From: an uncultured Thermoleophilia bacterium
GTDB lineage: Bacteria > Actinomycetota > Thermoleophilia > Gaiellales > Gaiellaceae
Reading direction: 5' to 3'
DNA length: 64,000 nucleotides
NCBI GenBank assembly: GCA_963851065.1
Contig: CAWKNW010000017.1
Span: 165,198 to 229,197 of the forward strand
In this document: piece by piece, positions 2,148 through 12,493 of the stretch
How positions within the stretch are numbered: the stretch's first letter is position 1
Layout of the letters: each line of letters starts with the position of its first letter
Notes under the pieces: model-generated
Database searches by the model: none
What the model was told of the DNA's origin: nothing
Seen by the model: the letters and a program-made list of their open reading frames with translations, nothing else
Program-made: the position numbers and the translations under genes

Positions 2148-3125
2148 ATGCTGGCAGCGCGTTATCCCACGTCGGGCCCCGACGCCGGAACGCTCGAGGT
2201 CGTGGAGGTCTCGCGGCCGGAGCCGCGCCCCGGCCAGGTGCTGGTGCGGATCGCCGTCGCGGGGGTCAATCCGAGCGACTGGAAGTCGCGGCGGCGCGGC
2301 GGCACGACCGCCGGCCTCGACTTCGTCGTCCCCGGTCAGGACGGCGGCGGTGAGATCGCCGCGGTCGGGGCAGGTGTCGACGCGGCGCGCATCGGTGAGC
2401 GAGTCTGGCTCTTCGAGGGCCAATGGCAGCGAGCGCAGGGGACCGCTGCTCAGTGGATCGCGATCGACGCGAGCCGGGCCGTGCCCCTCCCGGATTCCGT
2501 CTCGTTCGACCAGGCTGCGGGGCTCGGGATTCCGGCGATGACCGCCCACCGCTGCCTGCACGCCGACGGCCCCGTCGTCGATGCGGCGGTCCTCGTCCAC
2601 GGCGGAGCCGGCGCCGTCGGGCACGCCGCGATCGAGCTCGCCCGGCACGCCGGCGCCCGCGTCGCGGCGACCGTCAGCTCGGACGAGAAAGCGCAGCTCG
2701 CAAGCGACGCCGGAGCCGAGCTCGTCGTCAACTACCGGAGCGAGGACGTCGCCGCCGCAATCCGCGCGTGGGCGCCGGACGGAGTCGCGCGCGTCGTCGA
2801 CGTCGACGTCGCCGCGAACCTGGGGATCGACACGAAGGTCGTCGCGCCGAACGGCGCGATCGCCTCGTACCTGGTGCGACCCGAGCCGGTCGTGCTCGGC
2901 CGCGAACTGATGGCCAACAACGTCGTCCTGCGCTTCGTGCTCGTCTACACGATGCCCGAGGAGGCGAAGCGCGGAGCGGTCGAGGCGATCGACGCGGCGT
3001 TGCGGGCCGGCGCGTTGACGCCGCTGCCGTCGACGCGCTTCCCGCTCGGTGAGATAGCCGCCGCGCACGACGCCGTCGAGAGCGGTGCCGTCGGCAAGGT
3101 GCTCGTCGACCTGCCCGTCGGCTAG
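2148..3125 (+). CDS. NADPH:quinone reductase / zinc-type alcohol dehydrogenase superfamily (MDR) oxidoreductase
   Basis: It starts at the internal ATG of track ORF 1953..3125. Motifs include VLVRIAVAGVNPSDWK, the Rossmann motif VLVHGGAGAVGHAAIELA, and an MDR-like C-terminus ending GKVLVDL. Confidence 0.85.
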   Translation: MLAARYPTSGPDAGTLEVVEVSRPEPRPGQVLVRIAVAGVNPSDWKSRRRGGTTAGLDFVVPGQDGGGEIAAVGAGVDAARIGERVWLFEGQWQRAQGTAAQWIAIDASRAVPLPDSVSFDQAAGLGIPAMTAHRCLHADGPVVDAAVLVHGGAGAVGHAAIELARHAGARVAATVSSDEKAQLASDAGAELVVNYRSEDVAAAIRAWAPDGVARVVDVDVAANLGIDTKVVAPNGAIASYLVRPEPVVLGRELMANNVVLRFVLVYTMPEEAKRGAVEAIDAALRAGALTPLPSTRFPLGEIAAAHDAVESGAVGKVLVDLPVG

Positions 3126-3940
3126 AGCCGATCGAGCAGCTCGCCGATGCCGGCGACGCTCTCGTCCGGCCTCTGCAGCGCCGGGAGCCGGCCGAGCGGT
3201 GACGCGCCGGTGATGCCCGTCTGCACGAGCACCGTGTGCGAGCCGCCGAGGTTCCCGAGGGCGATGTCGAGGGCGACGTCGTCCCCGATCACCACGAGCT
3301 CGCGGGCCGGAAGATCGAGGCGGTCGACGATCTCGCGAACGGCGGGACGCGACGGCTTGCCGACGATCGTCGGCCGTGCACCGGTGACCTTCGCGAGTGC
3401 AGCCGTCACCATCGCGCCCCGGCTGAAGATCGGGCCGTCCGCACCCGAGTACGCGGCCACATAGCTCGCGGTCAGGAGCGCCGCTCCCTTGGTGATCGCG
3501 CGCGCCGCCTGTTCGAGCTCATCGAAGTCGAAGTCCGCCGGATGAGCGACGAACACGACCTCGAACCGGTCCTTCGCGTCGACCAGCCGCACGCCTGCTT
3601 GCATGAGCCGTTCGTGCGTCGCAGGGGTGCAGAACGCAAGCACGCCGGCATCGCGGTGCCTGCGGCCCAGGAACGAGATCGCGCAGCAGACCGGTGTCAG
3701 CACCTCGTCGTCGCGGACGTCGAGACCCCCCTCGCGCAGCTCGGTCGCCAGGACCTGCGGCGAGACATGGCTCGCGTTCGTGAAGATGACGAACGGCCGC
3801 CCCGAACGCCGGATCGCGGCAAGCAGCTCCCGGGCGCCGGCGATCGGCTCGTGCCCGCTCCGAGTGCGCTGGATCAACGTTCCGTCGAGGTCGAGCACGA
3901 ACCCCTTCGCCTCCTGCAACGCCGTCATCCGCGCCGCCAC
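3122..3940 (-). CDS. HAD-superfamily subfamily IIA (NagD-like) phosphatase
   Basis: FVLDLDGTL is the catalytic DxDGT motif, followed by FVIFTNAS, GKPS and VIGDDVALDI motifs. The second Met, at 3928, would give an ATGA overlap with the upstream stop at 3925-3927. Confidence 0.8.
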   Translation of the reverse strand: MAARMTALQEAKGFVLDLDGTLIQRTRSGHEPIAGARELLAAIRRSGRPFVIFTNASHVSPQVLATELREGGLDVRDDEVLTPVCCAISFLGRRHRDAGVLAFCTPATHERLMQAGVRLVDAKDRFEVVFVAHPADFDFDELEQAARAITKGAALLTASYVAAYSGADGPIFSRGAMVTAALAKVTGARPTIVGKPSRPAVREIVDRLDLPARELVVIGDDVALDIALGNLGGSHTVLVQTGITGASPLGRLPALQRPDESVAGIGELLDRL

Positions 3941-5391
3941 AGCAGGTCCGTCTCGTCCTTGGTCAGGCTGAGGTAGGTCACCTCGGGCCGCCGCGCGAGC
4001 TCGCGGAGGAGGGTGACGAGCGGGCTGCGGCGGCCGGGAACCGCGGCCGGCGCACCGCCCACCATCGCGTCGACCTGCTCGGCGGGCATCGTCAGCCGGA
4101 GGAGCAGTTCCTCGTCGGAGATCCGCTCCCCGAAGCGGGCGCGTGCCCCCTCGAGGGAGAGCGGCTCGACCCGGCGGAGCTCGGCCGCGCGCGGCAGCGA
4201 GAGCACCCGGTCTGCGACATCCGGCGCCGGCGGTGCGGGCGGCTCACCGAAGTGCCCGAGGAAGTAGCGCACGATCTCGTCGGGAACGTCGCTGTAGCGC
4301 TCGGCGCCGCGGTGAACGGCCATCACGTTCATCACCGCCTGGGTGACGAGGAACTGCGCGTACGGGGTGACGACGATCGGATAGCCGAAGTCGGCACGCA
4401 CGCGCCCGATCTCCTCGATCGACTCGTCGAAGAGCTCCGGGCGGCGCATCTCCTCGAGCTGGCGGCGCATCGTCGTCACCACCCCGCCCGGAAGCTGATG
4501 GTGGTAGTAGCCCGCGTCGTACTCGGCCGGCACGCCGAGCGGGAGGCCTCGATCGGTCGCGAGCCGGCGGAAGTGCGCCGACACGGCAGCGAGCGCATCG
4601 CGATCGAGACGGTGCGAGAGCCCGGAGGCCTCGAGGTTGCGCAGCGTCGACTCGGTCGCCGGCTGGGAGGTGCCGTTGGCGAGCGGCGCGACCGCCGTGT
4701 GCAGGGTGCCGAATCCGAGCTGCGCCCCCTCGACGTAGACGAGCGGCGCAAGCCCGATCGTGCAGTGGCTGTGCAGCTCGACCGGTCGTCCCGCAAACGC
4801 TCCGAGGAAGAGCGGCGCGAGCTCCCGCACTCGGTCGACGGTGAGCAGCCCGCCAGGGTCCTTGAGGTAGAGGCGATCGACATCCGGCATCGCCGCGACA
4901 GCCGCCGCACGCGTTGCGTAGTGCTCGTCGTCGTGCACCTCGCTGATCGAGTAGGTGAGCCCGATCACGACCTCCTCCGCTCCCTCCTGCTTCGCGATCC
5001 GTGCGATCTGCGCGAGCGCCCGCGGGTCGTTCATCGGATCCGCGATCTGCACTCGGCGGATGCCGTTGCGAACGACGAGGCGCAGCGCCAGCCGGATCAC
5101 CTCCTCCTCCGCCGGCTCCCAGGAGATGAAGCGCATGCCGGTGGTCAGGAAGGTCAGGAGCGTCCGCGGCATCGCTGCGCTCATCAGTCGAATTCGCTCC
5201 CAGGGATCCTCGTGATGGAAGCGCACCGAGACGGCCATGTGCGTGCTCGAGGTGAAGTCGAGAGCGCGATGACCCACGCGGTCGAGGGTCGGCGCGATCG
5301 AGACGACGTCGGGCGTCGTCAGCCCCGTCGCGCCCCAGAGGCTCTGGTTCCCGTCACGCGTCGTCGTATCGACCAGCTCGATCGTCGTCAT
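3925..5391 (-). CDS. biotin-dependent carboxyltransferase subunit (OadA / PycB / transcarboxylase 5S type), without a fused biotinyl domain
   Basis: This is 488 aa from the internal ATG of track ORF 3925..5922. Motifs are MTTIELVDTTTRDGNQS, LYLKDPGG (carbamyl-Lys position), ELHSHCTIG (metal His-x-His) and the YYHHQLPGG region, typical of the pyruvate-carboxylase CT fold. It has an ATGA overlap with the upstream BCCP stop. Confidence 0.85.
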   Translation of the reverse strand: MTTIELVDTTTRDGNQSLWGATGLTTPDVVSIAPTLDRVGHRALDFTSSTHMAVSVRFHHEDPWERIRLMSAAMPRTLLTFLTTGMRFISWEPAEEEVIRLALRLVVRNGIRRVQIADPMNDPRALAQIARIAKQEGAEEVVIGLTYSISEVHDDEHYATRAAAVAAMPDVDRLYLKDPGGLLTVDRVRELAPLFLGAFAGRPVELHSHCTIGLAPLVYVEGAQLGFGTLHTAVAPLANGTSQPATESTLRNLEASGLSHRLDRDALAAVSAHFRRLATDRGLPLGVPAEYDAGYYHHQLPGGVVTTMRRQLEEMRRPELFDESIEEIGRVRADFGYPIVVTPYAQFLVTQAVMNVMAVHRGAERYSDVPDEIVRYFLGHFGEPPAPPAPDVADRVLSLPRAAELRRVEPLSLEGARARFGERISDEELLLRLTMPAEQVDAMVGGAPAAVPGRRSPLVTLLRELARRPEVTYLSLTKDETDLLWRRG

Positions 5392-5792
5392 TCGACCTCG
5401 ACGCGGAAGAGCGGCTGCCCGAACTCGACGAGCTCTGCGTTCGCGGCGCAGATCTCGACGATCGTGCCGGAGACGCCGGCGACGATCGAGTTCATCATCT
5501 TCATCACCTCGATCAGGCACACCACGGTTTCCGGCTCGACCCGCGTGCCGACATCGACGTACGCAGTGGCACCAGGCGCCGAGGCGCGGTAGAACACGCC
5601 GAGGATCGGGCTCTCGATCGCGTGCAGCTCGCCCACGGGAACCGCGGCCGGCGGCTCCGGCTCGGCGGCCGGCGGCTTCGGGCCGCGCCGTACGTGCAGC
5701 TGCAACTCGGGCGTGTCGATCCGCAGCTCGTCGAGCTCCGACTCGTCGATCAGCCGCAGGATCTCGCGGACGTCGTCGTCGTCCAGAGTCAC
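5388..5792 (-). CDS. biotin carboxyl carrier protein (AccB-like)
   Basis: This is 134 aa from an in-frame GTG. It has an AccB-like N-domain (ILRLIDESELDELRI), a Pro/Ala linker and the biotinyl-lysine motif CLIEVMKMMN. The GTG at 5792-5790 overlaps the upstream TGA at 5791-5789. Confidence 0.85.
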   Translation of the reverse strand: MTLDDDDVREILRLIDESELDELRIDTPELQLHVRRGPKPPAAEPEPPAAVPVGELHAIESPILGVFYRASAPGATAYVDVGTRVEPETVVCLIEVMKMMNSIVAGVSGTIVEICAANAELVEFGQPLFRVEVE

Positions 5793-6844
5793 GATCCTTG
5801 CTCCCGCGGCTTGACGCCGAGCGTCGCCATGACGAGGTCGAGCGCCGAGTCGCCGGTAGGCCCGTGCGTTCGCGGAGCAGCCGTGACGGGCCTCGCCTGC
5901 AGCACGTAGGTCCTCCCCGCACCGTCGATCGCCCACTCGACGTCCTGGTGGCAGCCGAAGTGGCGCTCGACGTCGCGCGCGACGCGCATCAGCTCAGCAA
6001 GGTGAACATCGTCGAGACACGGTGTGTGTGCACGGTCAGGCGCCACGTCGACGCGCACGGTGCCGGCGCCGTCCGGGTCCGGCCGATACTCCACCAGCTT
6101 CGCGTTGACCGAGCCTCGCACGACCTCACCGGTCACCTTGCTGACGAGGTACTCGTCCGGCGTGACCTCGCCGCCGACGACCGCCAGTCCAAGCCCCCAA
6201 CTCGCGTCGATCGCGACGACGCTCGGATCGCCGCTCACCGGGTTGCAGGTGAACAGGACGCCCGCGATCTCGGCGTCGACCATCCGCTGGACGGCGACGC
6301 CCATCGCGGGCGCCAGCGCGGTGTCGCCGAGTCGGGCGCGGTACGTGATCGACGGCGGGCTGTGCAGGCTCGCCCAGCAGCGCTGCACCGCATGGCAGAG
6401 CTGCCCCGGGCCGCGCACCCAGAGATACGTCTCCTGCTGGCCGGCGAACGTCGCCTCGGCGCTGTCCTCACCGAGCGCGCTCGAGCGCACGGCCACGGCT
6501 GGGTCGCGCTCACCGGCGTCGGCCGCGAGGTCCGCGTAGCGCTCGAGCACTTCGGCCCGGACGGGCGCCGGCAGCTCGGCGGCCCCGATCGCCGCTGTCA
6601 GCTTGGCGGAGGCGGCCTGCACGGCGGCGAGATCGTCGACGTCGAGCCCGGCGAGTACGCCGTCGAACGACTCGCGGAGACCGGCGGACTCGAGAAAGGC
6701 GGTGTACGCGCCGGCGGAGATCGCGAATCCGCCGGGCACCGGGATGCCGCCGGCGAGCAGCTCCCCGAGCGCGGCGCTCTTGCCTCCGAAGTGCTCCTCG
6801 TCGCGCAACCTGAGGTCGGCGAGCGGCACTGTCGCCGCGTTCAC
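5789..6844 (-). CDS. PEP synthase/PPDK N-terminal ATP-grasp domain protein (phenylphosphate synthase beta, PpsB-like)
   Basis: The 351-aa protein contains GGKSAALGELLAGGIPVPGGFAI, AVRSSALGEDS, GVAVQRMV and DVEWAIDG...YVLQARPVT. That is only the nucleotide-binding domain of PEP-utilising dikinases. The GTG start directly abuts the upstream TGA. Confidence 0.85.
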   Translation of the reverse strand: MNAATVPLADLRLRDEEHFGGKSAALGELLAGGIPVPGGFAISAGAYTAFLESAGLRESFDGVLAGLDVDDLAAVQAASAKLTAAIGAAELPAPVRAEVLERYADLAADAGERDPAVAVRSSALGEDSAEATFAGQQETYLWVRGPGQLCHAVQRCWASLHSPPSITYRARLGDTALAPAMGVAVQRMVDAEIAGVLFTCNPVSGDPSVVAIDASWGLGLAVVGGEVTPDEYLVSKVTGEVVRGSVNAKLVEYRPDPDGAGTVRVDVAPDRAHTPCLDDVHLAELMRVARDVERHFGCHQDVEWAIDGAGRTYVLQARPVTAAPRTHGPTGDSALDLVMATLGVKPREQGS

Positions 6845-8683
6845 TCAGGGCGCCTCGTCGAGGATGTCGACCACGCCGGTCGCACCGTCCACCCGCAGCA
6901 GCTGCCCCGTCTTGATGACGGCCGTCGCGCGCCCCGTGCCGACGACTGCCGGCTTGCCGTACTCGCGGGAGACGATCGCCGCGTGCGACATGACGCCTCC
7001 GATGTCGGTGACGGTTGCCTTCACCTTCGGGAAGATCGGCGCCCACGCGGGCGACGTGATCGTGCACACGAGGATCTCGCCGTCCTGCACCGAGCCGAGC
7101 TCACTCGGATCGTTCAACACGCGCGCCCGTCCTTCGACCGTACCGGCGGATGCCGCGGCTCCGTGCAGCCGGCGCTGGGTGCCTTCGAGCGACGCCGCCC
7201 ACTCCTGCAGCCGCTGCGGTGTGACGCCCCACAGCATCACCGCCATCGGATCGTTGACCGACTCGGGCATCGCGCCGAGCGCCGGCGGCGGCGTCCACTC
7301 CTCGAGCCGCGCGAGCAGGGCACGGCGCCGCGCGACGATCGGCGGCCAGTAGTCCGGCCCGAGCGGCGGTCCGCCGGTCGCCCACATCAGGCAGAGCTCC
7401 TCGAGCGCGGACATGACCTCGTGGCGACCGAGCTGGAAGATGTCCTCGCCGTCCGCGAGCCAGCCGTGGTTCGCGAGCACGGCACCGAACTCGCGCATCT
7501 TGTTGTAGTAGCTCGTGAGGAACCAGTAGTCGCAGTAGAACTTGTGCTCTTCGACGTACGGGAACACCGTGCGCGACAGGCCGAGCAGCTCGGCGAACGA
7601 GCCCTTCGCGTCCTCGGGCAGGAGCTCCGCGTAGCCCTCGGCCAGCCGGTCGCGCTCCTCGCGCAGCCTTTCGATCGGCCGTTCGACGTTCTCCCCCGCC
7701 ACCAGCGCGGCGACGTGCCCGACCAGCGAGGCATAGGGAATCGTCGGGTCGTCGTTCCAGCTGCGGTAGTAGTGGTAGAGGCCGTCGCCCGTGGCCATGT
7801 TGAACCACGGGTCCTTCACCTCCTCGAGCTCCGCGAGCCACGCCCGGCCCGCCTCGCTCCCCGCGAGCTCGGCGTCGATCTCGGCCGGCGTTCGTCCCTG
7901 AACGAACGCGCCGGCGAGACCCGTGTCGACTGCGAGACGGGCGAGCCGGCGAAGCTCGGCGTCGGGCCGAAAGAGCAGAACGTCGATCCCGGCGATCATC
8001 TGCGCGATGTGCTGCTCCGGGATGTCGGGCAGGTGCGCACGGCAGAACTCGGAGAAGGTCAGGTAGGCGCCGTAGCCCAGGAGCAGGAACTCGAAGTGGT
8101 GATGCCACATCAGCTCGCCCAGCCGCAGAGTCCGCTGGTAGCCGTCGAGCAGCGGGAAGTAGCTCGCGACGCGGTCGTTCTCGAACACGAGCTCGTCGGG
8201 CTCGTACTCGGGCAGGTCGTGCACCTCGATCGCGTGCAGCTCGGCGATCAGGTTCTCCATCTTCGTCCGCCACCCCGCGTACAGCTCGTCCCAGTTCGCG
8301 AAGTAGTGGCCGGCGCGGCGCTGGAAGTACTCGGCACGCTCGGCCATCTTCGCCGGGTCCGTGACCGGGTTGACGGTGATGTACACGTAGCCGTTCACGA
8401 TCCGGTAGTCGACCCCCATCGCGGGCGGGACGGCGAACGCACGGTTCTGCCAGGCGCCGACGGCGTAGTACGGGCCGTCGATCGAGACGATGTCGAATGC
8501 CGGCATCGGCATCGGGAAGTGCATCGAGTTCCAGAACCAGAGCCGTCCCTCGTCTATCTCACGGCGCTCCTCGGTGAAGAGCGTGTAGTAGGGGTAGAGC
8601 TCCTGCCAGCCCTCGCACCCCGGCGGCGTCTCGATCGAGAACGGGCTGGGAAAGGCGCTCACGGCGCCCGTGGATGTCGTCAT
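6845..8683 (-). CDS. PEP-utilising-enzyme mobile (phosphohistidine) domain protein with a large non-canonical N-terminal domain (phenylphosphate synthase alpha, PpsA-like)
   Basis: The 612-aa protein has the C-terminal swivel-domain motif ITSPAWAPIF...DIGGVMSHAAIVSREYGKPAVVGTG. The N-terminal ~500 aa (FPSPFSIETPPGCEGWQELYPYY...) is not the pyruvate/PEP TIM barrel. A strong GAGGAG sits 7-8 nt upstream of the ATG. Confidence 0.85.
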   Translation of the reverse strand: MTTSTGAVSAFPSPFSIETPPGCEGWQELYPYYTLFTEERREIDEGRLWFWNSMHFPMPMPAFDIVSIDGPYYAVGAWQNRAFAVPPAMGVDYRIVNGYVYITVNPVTDPAKMAERAEYFQRRAGHYFANWDELYAGWRTKMENLIAELHAIEVHDLPEYEPDELVFENDRVASYFPLLDGYQRTLRLGELMWHHHFEFLLLGYGAYLTFSEFCRAHLPDIPEQHIAQMIAGIDVLLFRPDAELRRLARLAVDTGLAGAFVQGRTPAEIDAELAGSEAGRAWLAELEEVKDPWFNMATGDGLYHYYRSWNDDPTIPYASLVGHVAALVAGENVERPIERLREERDRLAEGYAELLPEDAKGSFAELLGLSRTVFPYVEEHKFYCDYWFLTSYYNKMREFGAVLANHGWLADGEDIFQLGRHEVMSALEELCLMWATGGPPLGPDYWPPIVARRRALLARLEEWTPPPALGAMPESVNDPMAVMLWGVTPQRLQEWAASLEGTQRRLHGAAASAGTVEGRARVLNDPSELGSVQDGEILVCTITSPAWAPIFPKVKATVTDIGGVMSHAAIVSREYGKPAVVGTGRATAVIKTGQLLRVDGATGVVDILDEAP

Positions 8684-8751
8684 CCGAACGCTCCTCTTCG
8701 TGCCCGCCGGGGTGGCGAGCTCGCTACGGAGCCTAATGAGATAATCGTGGC

Positions 8752-10008
8752 ATGCCGCGCGGGCAGATCACCTCGAGCGGGGTACGCCGCCGCATCCCGG
8801 GGCTGACCCTCGTCGAGCACGAATTCTCGACACCGCTCGACCACGCCGGCGACGGCGGAGAGGAGCTCATGCTGTTCGCCCGGGAGCTGATCGGCGACTC
8901 GCCGGGCGCCGAGAGCTTTCCGCTGCTGGTGTTCTTCCAGGGCGGACCGGGGTTCGAGGCGCCCCGGGCCCTCAGCGCACCGGAACCGAGTGCCTGGCTG
9001 CAGCGCGCACTCCGCGAGTACCGGGTGTTGATGCTCGACCAGCGCGGGACCGGCCGGTCGACGCCCGTCGGGCGACTCGACGGACTGAGCGCTCGGGATC
9101 AGGCCGCCTATCTGACGCACTTTCGCGCCGACTCGATCGTGCGTGACGCAGAGCGCGTCCGGGCGGCACTCGACGTCGAGCGGTGGTCGGTGATGGGACA
9201 GAGCTTCGGCGGCTTCTGTGTCCTCGCCTACCTGTCGGCCTTCCCCGGCTCGTTGCGCGAGGCATTCTTCTGCGGCGGCCTTCCTCCGATCGGGCGCCCC
9301 ACGGACGACGTCTATACGCGCACGTACGCGCACGTCCGGGAGCGGTGCCGCCGGTACTTCGAGCGATACCCGGACGACCGGGAGCGGGTCCGCGCCATTC
9401 ACCGGCAGACAGCCGAAGGATCGATCACTCTGCCGACAGGCGAGCAGCTGACGGCGCGCCGGTTCCGCCAGCTCGGCCTGATGCTGGGGATGAGCGACGG
9501 CGCCGAGCGGCTCCATGCGATCCTCGAGCTTCCGACCGACTCGCCCGCCTTCCTGTTCGACGTGGCGAACGGCAGTGACTTCTCACGCAATCCGCTCTTC
9601 GCAGCCGTTCACGAGTCGTGCTATGCCGACGGCTGCGTCACCGCCTGGTCGGCGGAGCGCACCTTGCCAAGCGACTTCGACGACGTCGAGCTCTTCACGG
9701 GCGAGCACGTCTTTCCGTGGATGTTCGAGGACTACGCTGCGTTGAGACCCCTTCGCGGGGCTGCGGAGCTCCTGGCGCATCACTCGTGGCCGCGCCTCTA
9801 CGACGACACGCGACTCGCGGCGAACGAGGTGCCGGCCGCAGCCGTCATCTACGCCAACGACATGTACGTCGATCGCGACCTGTCCGAGGAGACGGCCGGC
9901 CGGGTCGGGAACCTGCGGCGGTGGCTGACGGACGAGTACGAACACGACGGGATCCGCGTCGACGGTGCGCGCATCCTCGACCGGCTGATCTCGCTCGTGC
10001 GCGGCTAG
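8752..10008 (+). CDS. prolyl aminopeptidase / alpha-beta hydrolase (S33 family)
   Basis: The 418-aa protein contains LLVFFQGGPGFEAP, MLDQRGTGRSTP and GQSFGG (the nucleophile elbow). A GATAAT-like -10 box sits about 6 nt before the ATG, which suggests a leaderless mRNA. Confidence 0.85.
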   Translation: MPRGQITSSGVRRRIPGLTLVEHEFSTPLDHAGDGGEELMLFARELIGDSPGAESFPLLVFFQGGPGFEAPRALSAPEPSAWLQRALREYRVLMLDQRGTGRSTPVGRLDGLSARDQAAYLTHFRADSIVRDAERVRAALDVERWSVMGQSFGGFCVLAYLSAFPGSLREAFFCGGLPPIGRPTDDVYTRTYAHVRERCRRYFERYPDDRERVRAIHRQTAEGSITLPTGEQLTARRFRQLGLMLGMSDGAERLHAILELPTDSPAFLFDVANGSDFSRNPLFAAVHESCYADGCVTAWSAERTLPSDFDDVELFTGEHVFPWMFEDYAALRPLRGAAELLAHHSWPRLYDDTRLAANEVPAAAVIYANDMYVDRDLSEETAGRVGNLRRWLTDEYEHDGIRVDGARILDRLISLVRG

Positions 10009-10012
10009 ATAG

Positions 10013-10045
10013 AGGGGGCGAGTGCCGTACCGGCACTCGCCCCCT
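10013..10045. terminator. bidirectional stem-loop terminator between convergent genes
   Basis: AGGGGGCGAGTGCCG-TAC-CGGCACTCGCCCCCT is a perfect 15-bp stem with a 3-nt loop. It starts 5 nt after the aminopeptidase stop and sits upstream of the convergent membrane-protein stop. It has no long T tract. Confidence 0.6.
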
Positions 10046-10064
10046 GGAAGAAACGTCCCCGGAC

Positions 10065-10484
10065 TCAGAGATCCGATCGTTCGGGGTAGCCCTCCCACCG
10101 TGCCGTCAACGCGAAGAGGACGATGATGTTCAACGTGATGATCACGAGCGACCACAGCGGGTACCCGCTGTTGCCCAGCCAGCCGAGCTGAGCGATGATG
10201 TTCAGGGCGACGACGACGATCGTGAACCAGCGTGCCCAGCCCGAGCCGCTCCAGAGGGCGAGCCCGGCGAGAACGAGCACGACGCCCCAGAGCATCGTGA
10301 CCCAGCCCCAGGTCGTCGTGTCGAACACGACGAGCTGGTTGCCGTGAATCACGTAGTACTGACCGCGGATGACCGCGATCAGGCCCTCGAAGAAGTCCAA
10401 CATTCCGACGATCAGCATCACGACCGCCGCGAAGCCGATCCAGCCTGCCATCGGTTGCTTCACTGCTACCACCTCCACCTTCAT
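10065..10484 (-). CDS. integral membrane protein (4 TM; resembles the DUF7144 family)
   Basis: The 139-aa protein has four hydrophobic segments and the conserved-looking motifs FDTTTWGWV and GSGWARWF. Confidence 0.7.
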   Translation of the reverse strand: MKVEVVAVKQPMAGWIGFAAVVMLIVGMLDFFEGLIAVIRGQYYVIHGNQLVVFDTTTWGWVTMLWGVVLVLAGLALWSGSGWARWFTIVVVALNIIAQLGWLGNSGYPLWSLVIITLNIIVLFALTARWEGYPERSDL

Positions 10485-10543
10485 TCTTCTTGCCTCGCAC
10501 GCGGTTCGACACGCGCGACCGCGTTCCTACGGTTCACACCTTC

Positions 10544-12493
<1,950 letters not shown>

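Follow-up and report, generated by a model that had tools for sequence, protein, structure and literature searches.

A Thermoleophilia operon of the Hpe/Acv type that lacks a biotin carboxylase gene

The stretch of DNA analyzed here, referred to as the window, is 64 kb of contig CAWKNW010000017.1 from an uncultured Thermoleophilia bacterium. It carries an operon of five minus-strand genes (8683..3122) in the order KinA-KinB-BCCP-CT-HAD, where KinA and KinB are the alpha and beta subunits of a dikinase, BCCP is a biotin carboxyl carrier protein, CT is a carboxyltransferase, and HAD is a HAD-IIA phosphatase; all five open reading frames (ORFs) are intact and translationally coupled. The operon is probably the Thermoleophilia version of an Hpe/Acv-family catabolic module for phenolic (4-hydroxyaryl) ketones, with the biotin carboxylase (BC) that has no gene in the cluster being most probably supplied in trans. 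It is homologous and syntenic to characterized systems, its catalytic motifs are intact, its genes are under purifying selection, and its lack of BC is conserved among relatives.

In the predicted pathway, KinB would present ATP to KinA, whose swivel histidine would take the beta-phosphate (ATP -> AMP + Pi) and pass it to the phenolic hydroxyl of the substrate. CT would then move CO2 from the carboxybiotin of BCCP onto the phosphorylated intermediate, at the methyl or methylene carbon adjoining its keto group, and the HAD phosphatase would remove the phosphate to give a hydroxyaryl beta-keto acid, which enzymes encoded elsewhere would process further. The BC that charges BCCP would come from elsewhere in the genome, either from a paralogous full cluster or from a housekeeping carboxylase. 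The order of reactions, the substrate class, and the supply of BC in trans are predictions from sequence comparison. An earlier interpretation made without database searches (the sequence-only reading) had proposed phosphotransfer followed by biotin-dependent carboxylation and a phosphatase step. That scheme is essentially the Hpe/Acv pathway, but the phosphate is placed on a phenolic hydroxyl and not on an oxo/enol group, and the Hpe/Acv carboxylase has its own ATP-dependent BC.

The cluster of Rhodococcus rhodochrous GD02 is arranged as hpeH-hpeI-hpeC-hpeB-hpeA-hpeD(-hpeE-hpeF) (Dexter et al. 2022, PMC9618137). HpeHI is a two-component kinase resembling PpsAB and CreHI that phosphorylates 4-hydroxyacetophenone and acetovanillone; HpeCBA is a three-component complex of BCCP, BC, and CT that, given ATP, Mg2+, and HCO3-, carboxylates the 4-phospho compounds only; and HpeD is a NagD-like phosphatase that acts on the carboxylated product (PMC9618137). 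The acvABCDEF cluster of Sphingobium SYK-6 is syntenic with hpe, AcvE being a PycB-like CT and AcvF a NagD-like protein (Higuchi et al. 2022, bioRxiv 10.1101/2022.04.28.489975). HpeI is an ATP-grasp domain (PDB 9GOJ), and HpeH joins a substrate domain like that of rifampin phosphotransferase (RPH) to a swivel domain that bears the motif T/S-x-x-G-G-x-x-x-H, with His581 being essential; HpeH, CreH, and PpsA are ~45% identical to one another (Dexter et al. 2025, PMC12167813). The pathway is reported to be rare, with four fully syntenic genomes and with kinase and carboxylase clustered in 52/836 cases. The BC and CT labels given to HpeA/HpeB and XccA/XccC in Table 1 of PMC9618137 are opposite to those in bioRxiv 10.1101/2022.04.28.489975; synteny and the masses of the subunits (57.4 and 49.3 kDa) point to BC as the gene after BCCP and to CT as the next, the assignment used here. 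The sequence-only reading had held that PpsAB-type kinases partner with UbiD-type carboxylases and not with biotin enzymes, and that no characterized system has the composition seen in the window. The first statement is contradicted by the Hpe/Acv papers (PMC9618137; bioRxiv 10.1101/2022.04.28.489975; PMC12167813) and the second by hpeHICBAD and acvABCDEF; a characterized homologous cluster of known function exists, which is the observation that the reading itself had named as refuting it.

A tblastn search of plasmids with the window CT found a cluster on the Rhodococcus sp. JS3073 plasmid NZ_CP113952 (locus L087; L-numbers denote mapped loci) with the order KinA-KinB-BCCP-BC-CT-HAD. As its KinB is 97% identical to the crystallized HpeI segment, L087 was used as a proxy for the Hpe proteins. 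The window proteins share with it 49% (KinA), 43% (KinB), 53% (BCCP, biotinyl domain), 51% (CT, E 2e-143), and 29% (HAD) identity, and in a neighbor-joining (NJ) tree CT groups with Hpe-type and plasmid Acv-type carboxyltransferases. The operon thus has the two-component dikinase, the free-standing BCCP with an MKM motif, the PycB-like CT, and the terminal NagD-like HAD gene of the Hpe/Acv type; the discrete AccC-type BC between BCCP and CT is missing. Two plasmids from bisphenol degraders, Sphingomonas bisphenolicum AO1 and Pseudomonas putida YC-AE1, carry clusters of a Tm-1-like kinase followed by BCCP-BC-CT-HAD, and each of the cultured Hpe/Acv-type examples found has a BC gene.

Profile searches with Pfam and NCBIfam agreed with the domain assignments of the sequence-only reading for all five proteins, and its analogy between the kinase pair and the two-part PpsA/PpsB dikinase was borne out. 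KinA carries TDIGGVMSHAAIVSREYGKPAVVG, with the swivel motif TDIGGVMSH, and matches NCBIfam PRK08296.1-5 at 893 bits (cut-off, 578). In the Pfam scan, PEP-utilizers was found at residues 533-603 only and the phosphoenolpyruvate/pyruvate TIM barrel was absent. A PDB sequence search matched the swivel domain alone, to RPH 5FBS, with nothing matched in the N-terminal 500 amino acids outside this domain. KinB is recognized by PPDK_N (E 1e-95) and has the motifs GGKSAALGEL, GIPVPGGFAI, and EWAIDG; its best PDB match is the HpeI crystal structure 9GOJ (E 1e-77), with 43% identity to HpeI residues 28-355. BCCP has a Biotin_lipoyl domain with the biotinyl-lysine motif EVMKMMN and scores 109 bits against TIGR00531, slightly below the cut-off of 115. 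The HAD protein matches TIGR01460 (HAD-IIA) at 104 bits (cut-off, 100) as well as Hydrolase_6 and Hydrolase_like, and shows the motifs DLDGTL, FTNAS, GKPS, and GDD.

CT has PYC_OADA and HMGL-like domains and the motifs DTTTRDGNQS, LYLKDPGG, and HSHCT. Its best matches among solved structures are PycB 5KS8 (194 bits), OadA 2NX9, and the 5S subunit 1RQB. The PycB and OadA matches favor a reading in which BCCP and CT are part of a conventional two-subunit enzyme, a pyruvate carboxylase or oxaloacetate decarboxylase, for which PycA, AccC, or OadB is encoded at another site, and in which the neighboring kinase and phosphatase genes are unrelated to it. This is extremely unlikely, as CT scores below all the curated NCBIfam cut-offs for PycB, OadA, and 5S proteins (289 versus 402, 251 versus 718, 248 versus 756, and 167 versus 827 bits), is far closer to the Hpe-cluster CT, and belongs to a five-gene order with overlapping stops and starts that is kept in dozens of species and matches hpe/acv. 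A conventional PycB, OadA, or 5S identity was rejected on these scores together with the lack of a fused biotin domain in CT and of a 12S or OadB gene in the window.

The absence of BC is real and conserved in many relatives, and it is the one unexplained feature of the operon. As the sequence-only reading had stated for the operon, no BC is encoded there, and none was found in the whole window by tblastn with the cluster-type BC of sister locus L004 (E<=1e-5); nor was a Biotin_carb or CPSase domain detected by Pfam in ~45 window ORFs. L004 itself is a full six-gene cluster, whose CT, KinA, and KinB are 74%, 77%, and 64% identical to those of the window, respectively. Seven other loci (L002, L003, and L005-L009), with CTs 88-92% identical to that of the window, have the same five genes without BC at the same chromosomal site. 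This clade has common flanks, namely a convergent medium-chain dehydrogenase/reductase (MDR) oxidoreductase gene, a divergent alpha/beta-hydrolase gene, DUF7144, and FtsH. Since both the BC-less form and the flanks are common to these loci, the loss of BC predates the window clade.

Homologs of CT in the protein database number >6000, and the best 120 of them share 65-92% identity with it and are labeled, where a label is given, as Solirubrobacteraceae, Thermoleophilaceae, Conexibacter, or Capillimicrobium. Among species-representative genomes at least 586 relatives of CT were found; the best 80 loci are all from metagenome-assembled genomes (MAGs) labeled as Thermoleophilia, a subgroup of it, or Actinomycetes/Actinomycetota. 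A protein-database search with the L004 BC gave at least 120 matches at >=65% identity, and the three that were inspected all lie in full clusters. The five window proteins and the L004 BC were mapped onto 84 fetched loci and the window. Counting loci with enough upstream sequence, the full KinA-KinB-BCCP-BC-CT-HAD cluster was present at 28 loci and the form of the window, KinA-KinB-BCCP-CT-HAD, at 27, with KinA-KinB-CT-HAD at 6, KinA-CT-HAD at 3-4, and KinB-BCCP-CT-HAD at 3-5. About half of 83 related Thermoleophilia loci have no BC. The gene-neighborhood comparison suggested with the sequence-only reading showed that the five genes co-occur in dozens of species and that BC is adjacent in the 28 full clusters. 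In the NJ tree of CTs, BC-less clusters fall in several separate clades that are interleaved with full ones, and Fitch parsimony on this one-protein tree gave 10 changes of state for the presence or absence of BC (8-11 in 40 bootstrap trees). The Hpe/Acv papers make no mention of clusters without BC, of how abundant such clusters are in Thermoleophilia, or of the N-terminal BCCP stubs detailed below.

The retained genes are under purifying selection. Ratios of nonsynonymous to synonymous substitution rates (dN/dS), calculated by NG86 between the window and its clade (dS, 0.33-0.77), were 0.07-0.17 for KinA, 0.15-0.26 for KinB, 0.19-0.40 for BCCP, 0.09-0.14 for CT, and 0.14-0.36 for HAD. Each of the 38 BCCPs from BC-less clusters retains E[VI]MKMMN as its biotinyl motif, and CT residues R12, D13, Q16, K177, H207, and H209, which occupy metal, carbamyl-lysine, and substrate positions, are conserved in 88-89/89 sequences. 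No column of the CT alignment cleanly separates BC-less from BC-containing clusters, the strongest reaching a frequency difference of 0.70; the top-ranked columns mostly hold conservative substitutions, and the two groups have the same catalytic residues. There is therefore no sign of altered CT chemistry. The purifying selection and intact motifs imply that biotin-dependent carboxyl transfer is still required and, hence, that something must carboxylate biotin.

These data also bear on whether the BC-less operon is a decaying or nonfunctional remnant of an Hpe-type cluster, or one in which only the kinase and phosphatase are still used. Relatives do show a stepwise reduction, in which BC, then the biotinyl domain, and then KinB are missing, and matches are fragmented at some loci, e.g., L012 and L016. 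However, the five ORFs of the window are intact and translationally coupled, every gene, BCCP included, has a dN/dS within 0.07-0.40, the biotinyl motif and CT catalytic residues are invariant across BC-less clades, and fragmentation in nanopore MAGs may reflect assembly error. A remnant is accordingly regarded as very unlikely, and pseudogenization was rejected on the dN/dS values of all five genes.

The sequence-only reading had raised the possibility that the PPDK-type ATP-grasp and phosphohistidine subunits replace AccC and charge biotin themselves. The sole support for this is the co-occurrence of the ATP-grasp protein with BCCP where BC is absent. Against it, both subunits are orthologous to those of the BC-containing L004 (KinA, 77%; KinB, 64%) and 43-49% identical to HpeHI, with the same length, domains, and swivel motif, and some BC-less relatives are also without KinB or KinA, so the presence of the kinase does not track the absence of BC. 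The proposal is therefore unsupported, and we regard it as highly improbable.

A different way to do without an AccC-type BC would be to charge BCCP by ATP-independent transcarboxylation, e.g., from oxaloacetate, at the 5S-type site of CT, or to activate bicarbonate with the energy of the aryl phosphate. The lack of BC in cis at about half of the 83 loci, where BCCP and CT are nonetheless under purifying selection, is compatible with such chemistry, as is the CT lineage, to which OadA and the 5S subunit of the ATP-independent transcarboxylase also belong; moreover, why the substrate is phosphorylated at such cost has no explanation even for the characterized pathway (PMC9618137). Set against this, HpeCBA requires ATP and is not stimulated by HpeD (PMC9618137), no residue pattern sets the BC-less CTs apart, and the loci have no 12S-type second CT, OadB-like subunit, or new conserved partner, MDR being the sole enriched flank family. 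The piecemeal loss of other subunits also points to complementation in trans. BC-free charging is thus considered unlikely, and it is quite improbable that a large share of soil Thermoleophilia run their Hpe-type carboxylase without an AccC-type BC, BCCP being charged from an oxaloacetate-like beta-keto acid or via the aryl phosphate. Were the latter route used, the ATP spent by the dikinase would pay for carboxylation, which would be a new way of driving biotin-dependent carboxylation; BC-free charging would also account for the phosphorylation of the substrate in this pathway.

Complementation in trans is favored over new chemistry because subunits other than BC have been lost repeatedly and piecemeal: KinB, KinA, the biotinyl domain, or the HAD gene is also missing in cis in various relatives. 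Several observations nevertheless weigh against an Hpe/Acv-type function with BC supplied in trans. No BC was found within 10 kb of the ~48 BC-less loci, and Pfam scans of ~45 window ORFs revealed no coenzyme A (CoA) ligase, hydrolase, or ring-cleavage genes. The identity between KinA and the HpeH ortholog (49%) is barely above that among HpeH, CreH, and PpsA (~45%), and the predicted substrate is therefore taken from gene context alone. In addition, many of the loci are from long-read MAGs in which frameshift errors are possible (e.g., at L012 and L016).

Reduced, split, and fused forms of the cluster were observed among the relatives. At several Thermoleophilia loci both the biotinyl domain and BC are deleted, and the ~45-amino-acid N-terminal domain of BCCP (MPLSDDDVREILRLIDE...) survives with its Pro/Ala linker. 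Such stubs are present at L058 (9830-11455), L024 (~9840-11431), L001 (9843-10004), L040, L046, L051, and L061, and they are either fused in frame to CT, as in the 541-amino-acid ORF of L058, or encoded by a separate 53-amino-acid ORF, as in Capillimicrobium parvum. This N-terminal domain is highly conserved in the BCCPs of full and BC-less clusters alike and may be a docking or oligomerization element. On contig CAWBDI010000004.1, two partial clusters lie 50 kb apart, L042 (82755-104215) with KinA-KinB-BCCP-CT and no HAD gene and L059 (134274-155728) with KinA-CT-HAD; their components are complementary, suggesting that subunits are shared in trans. Extra KinA paralogs adjoin some clusters (L061 and L062). 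In the KinB-BCCP-CT-HAD loci L018, L026, L044, and L048, the place of KinA beside KinB is taken by a gene for an MDR oxidoreductase, located on the other strand; as no KinA adjoins KinB, the alpha subunit of these loci must be encoded elsewhere. A 556-amino-acid homolog, P0093, contains CT domains and Hydrolase_6 (HAD) and is either a CT-phosphatase fusion or a read-through caused by sequencing error. In the cultured Rubrobacter xylanophilus DSM 9941 (L091; CP073779.1, 576566-589912), a full six-gene cluster is followed by a gene for an AcsA-like (HpeE-like) CoA ligase, and the genes upstream encode Lyase_1, Abhydrolase, and CMD domains (pcaB/D/C-like; beta-ketoadipate pathway). This context supports an aromatic-catabolic role for the clade to which L091 belongs.

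The MDR oxidoreductase gene next to the window operon encodes ADH_N and ADH_zinc_N domains (Pfam), has the quinone oxidoreductase (QOR) 1YB5 as its best PDB match, and is syntenic in all loci of the window clade. Across the mapped loci, an MDR gene directly flanks 27/41 BC-less and 4/33 BC-containing clusters (L002, L006-L009, L027, L072, L083, L020, L036, L042, L048, and others), counts that carry no phylogenetic correction. The gene may lie downstream of the cluster, convergent or codirectional with it, or may be divergent from it upstream of KinA or of KinB, giving four arrangements. The MDR of the window clade shares just 31-38% identity with the other flanking copies and is not orthologous to them, so MDR was recruited at least twice or its adjacency is coincidental. 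Among the flanking families, none able to replace BC was found, QOR-like MDR oxidoreductases alone being enriched at BC-less loci; MDR itself was rejected as a substitute for BC since it cannot carboxylate biotin.

Rereading of the coordinates confirmed the five-gene minus-strand layout, gene overlaps, Shine-Dalgarno sequence, 68-nucleotide gap, and motifs described in the sequence-only reading. The TGA stop of KinA (6847-6845) is followed directly by the GTG start of KinB at 6844, KinB and BCCP overlap by GTGA (5792-5789), and BCCP/CT and CT/HAD each overlap by ATGA (5391-5388 and 3928-3925, respectively). The ATG at 3928 is taken as the start of HAD, with alignments to homologs beginning at residues 1-4 of that form. 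A GAGGAG Shine-Dalgarno sequence lies at 8696-8691 on the minus strand, 7 nucleotides upstream of the KinA ATG at 8683. Consensus scans of 2900-9000, which are uninformative for this phylum, detected neither a sigma-70-like promoter nor an intrinsic terminator. As no consensus promoter was detected, a promoter function is assigned to 8684-8751 by position only. The stop codons of HAD (minus strand) and MDR (plus strand) overlap at 3122-3125 within the palindrome CTAG, leaving no space for a terminator between the two genes. The remainder of the window is of a housekeeping nature, with genes for ilv, leu, thr, and asp biosynthesis, phosphoenolpyruvate carboxylase, glutamate synthase, cytochrome oxidase, dnaX, recR, and ftsH. 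Features of the operon and its neighbors are given in Table 1.

Table 1. Positions of the operon genes and adjoining features in the 64-kb window
Feature	Position	Strand	Description
KinA, dikinase alpha (HpeH/AcvA/PpsA-like)	6845..8683	-	612 aa; N-terminal substrate-binding region and C-terminal swivel phosphohistidine domain
KinB, dikinase beta (HpeI/AcvB/PpsB-like)	5789..6844	-	351 aa; ATP-grasp domain only
BCCP (HpeC/AcvC-like)	5388..5792	-	134 aa; conserved N-terminal domain, Pro/Ala linker, biotinyl domain
CT, PycB/OadA/5S-type, Hpe/Acv/Xcc subfamily	3925..5391	-	488 aa; without fused biotin domain
HAD-IIA phosphatase, NagD-like (HpeD/AcvF-like)	3122..3928	-	268 aa; alternative GTG start at 3940
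Divergent intergenic region, 68 nt	8684..8751	.	Between operon and alpha/beta-hydrolase gene; promoter role positional only
Divergent alpha/beta-hydrolase gene	8752-10008		Upstream neighbor of operon
Zeta-crystallin/QOR-like MDR oxidoreductase, possible accessory gene (low confidence)	2148..3125	+	Convergent with HAD gene

The Hpe/Acv pathway is of interest for lignin valorization. Clusters related to it are frequent among uncultured soil Thermoleophilia, and about half of those sampled have shed BC while remaining under selection. If BC is shared in trans, these operons would be substrate-specificity modules, each made up of kinase, CT, and phosphatase and coupled to a shared unit that charges biotin. 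This would help both in engineering pathways and in interpreting the metabolism of MAGs. If no BC takes part, the chemistry itself would be new. Whichever holds, annotation of the operon as "PEP synthase / oxaloacetate decarboxylase" should be dropped.

Compared with Hpe, the window has the same order of KinA, KinB, BCCP, CT, and NagD-like phosphatase and the same domain families, and it retains the swivel-histidine motif, the biotinyl-lysine, and the CT metal and carbamyl-lysine residues. It differs in having no BC gene and no adjacent hpeE/hpeF-like CoA ligase or hydrolase gene, in its location in a housekeeping chromosomal region, whereas hpe lies in a transposon-flanked island, and in the residue before the catalytic histidine, which is Ser in the window and Cys in Hpe. 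Acv, compared by description only, is a six-gene kinase/carboxylase/phosphatase module that likewise has no adjacent CoA-ligase genes, with a PycB-like CT and a NagD-like phosphatase. However, Acv and the xcc system of Aromatoleum aromaticum EbN1 are proteobacterial and have a discrete AccC-like BC (AcvD/XccC), which the window lacks. MarK-type clusters, in which a Tm-1-like kinase is combined with acvCDEF (Novosphingobium aromaticivorans, PMC12624787, and the AO1 and YC-AE1 plasmids), have a homologous CT (46-49%), BCCP, and HAD in the same order, but their kinase is a single-component ADP-forming enzyme and BC is kept. The kinase module of the pathway is therefore exchangeable.

PpsAB of Thauera aromatica and CreHI of Corynebacterium glutamicum are two-component small-molecule dikinases with the same architecture and phosphohistidine mechanism as KinA and KinB. 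The product of PpsAB goes to a UbiD-type phenylphosphate carboxylase and that of CreHI to a P450 system, and the genes of neither lie in a cluster with a BCCP, a PycB-type CT, or a NagD-like phosphatase; in the window, no UbiD-type carboxylase or PpsC accessory gene was found in the operon or its flanks, and the partners are BCCP and a PycB-type CT. The ATP-grasp and swivel domains alone match RPH sequences, and identity as an RPH was rejected, the protein being split over two genes and the NCBIfam RPH models scoring 109 and 235 bits versus a cut-off of 999. In mycobacteria, AccA3 is a single BC-BCCP alpha subunit common to several CT beta subunits, AccD4, AccD5, and AccD6. Such actinobacterial acyl-CoA carboxylases differ from the window system in their crotonase-fold AccD and in the fusion of BCCP to BC, whereas in the window BCCP stays with CT and BC alone is missing; they nevertheless provide a precedent for one biotin-charging component serving several CTs, as the model of BC supply in trans requires.

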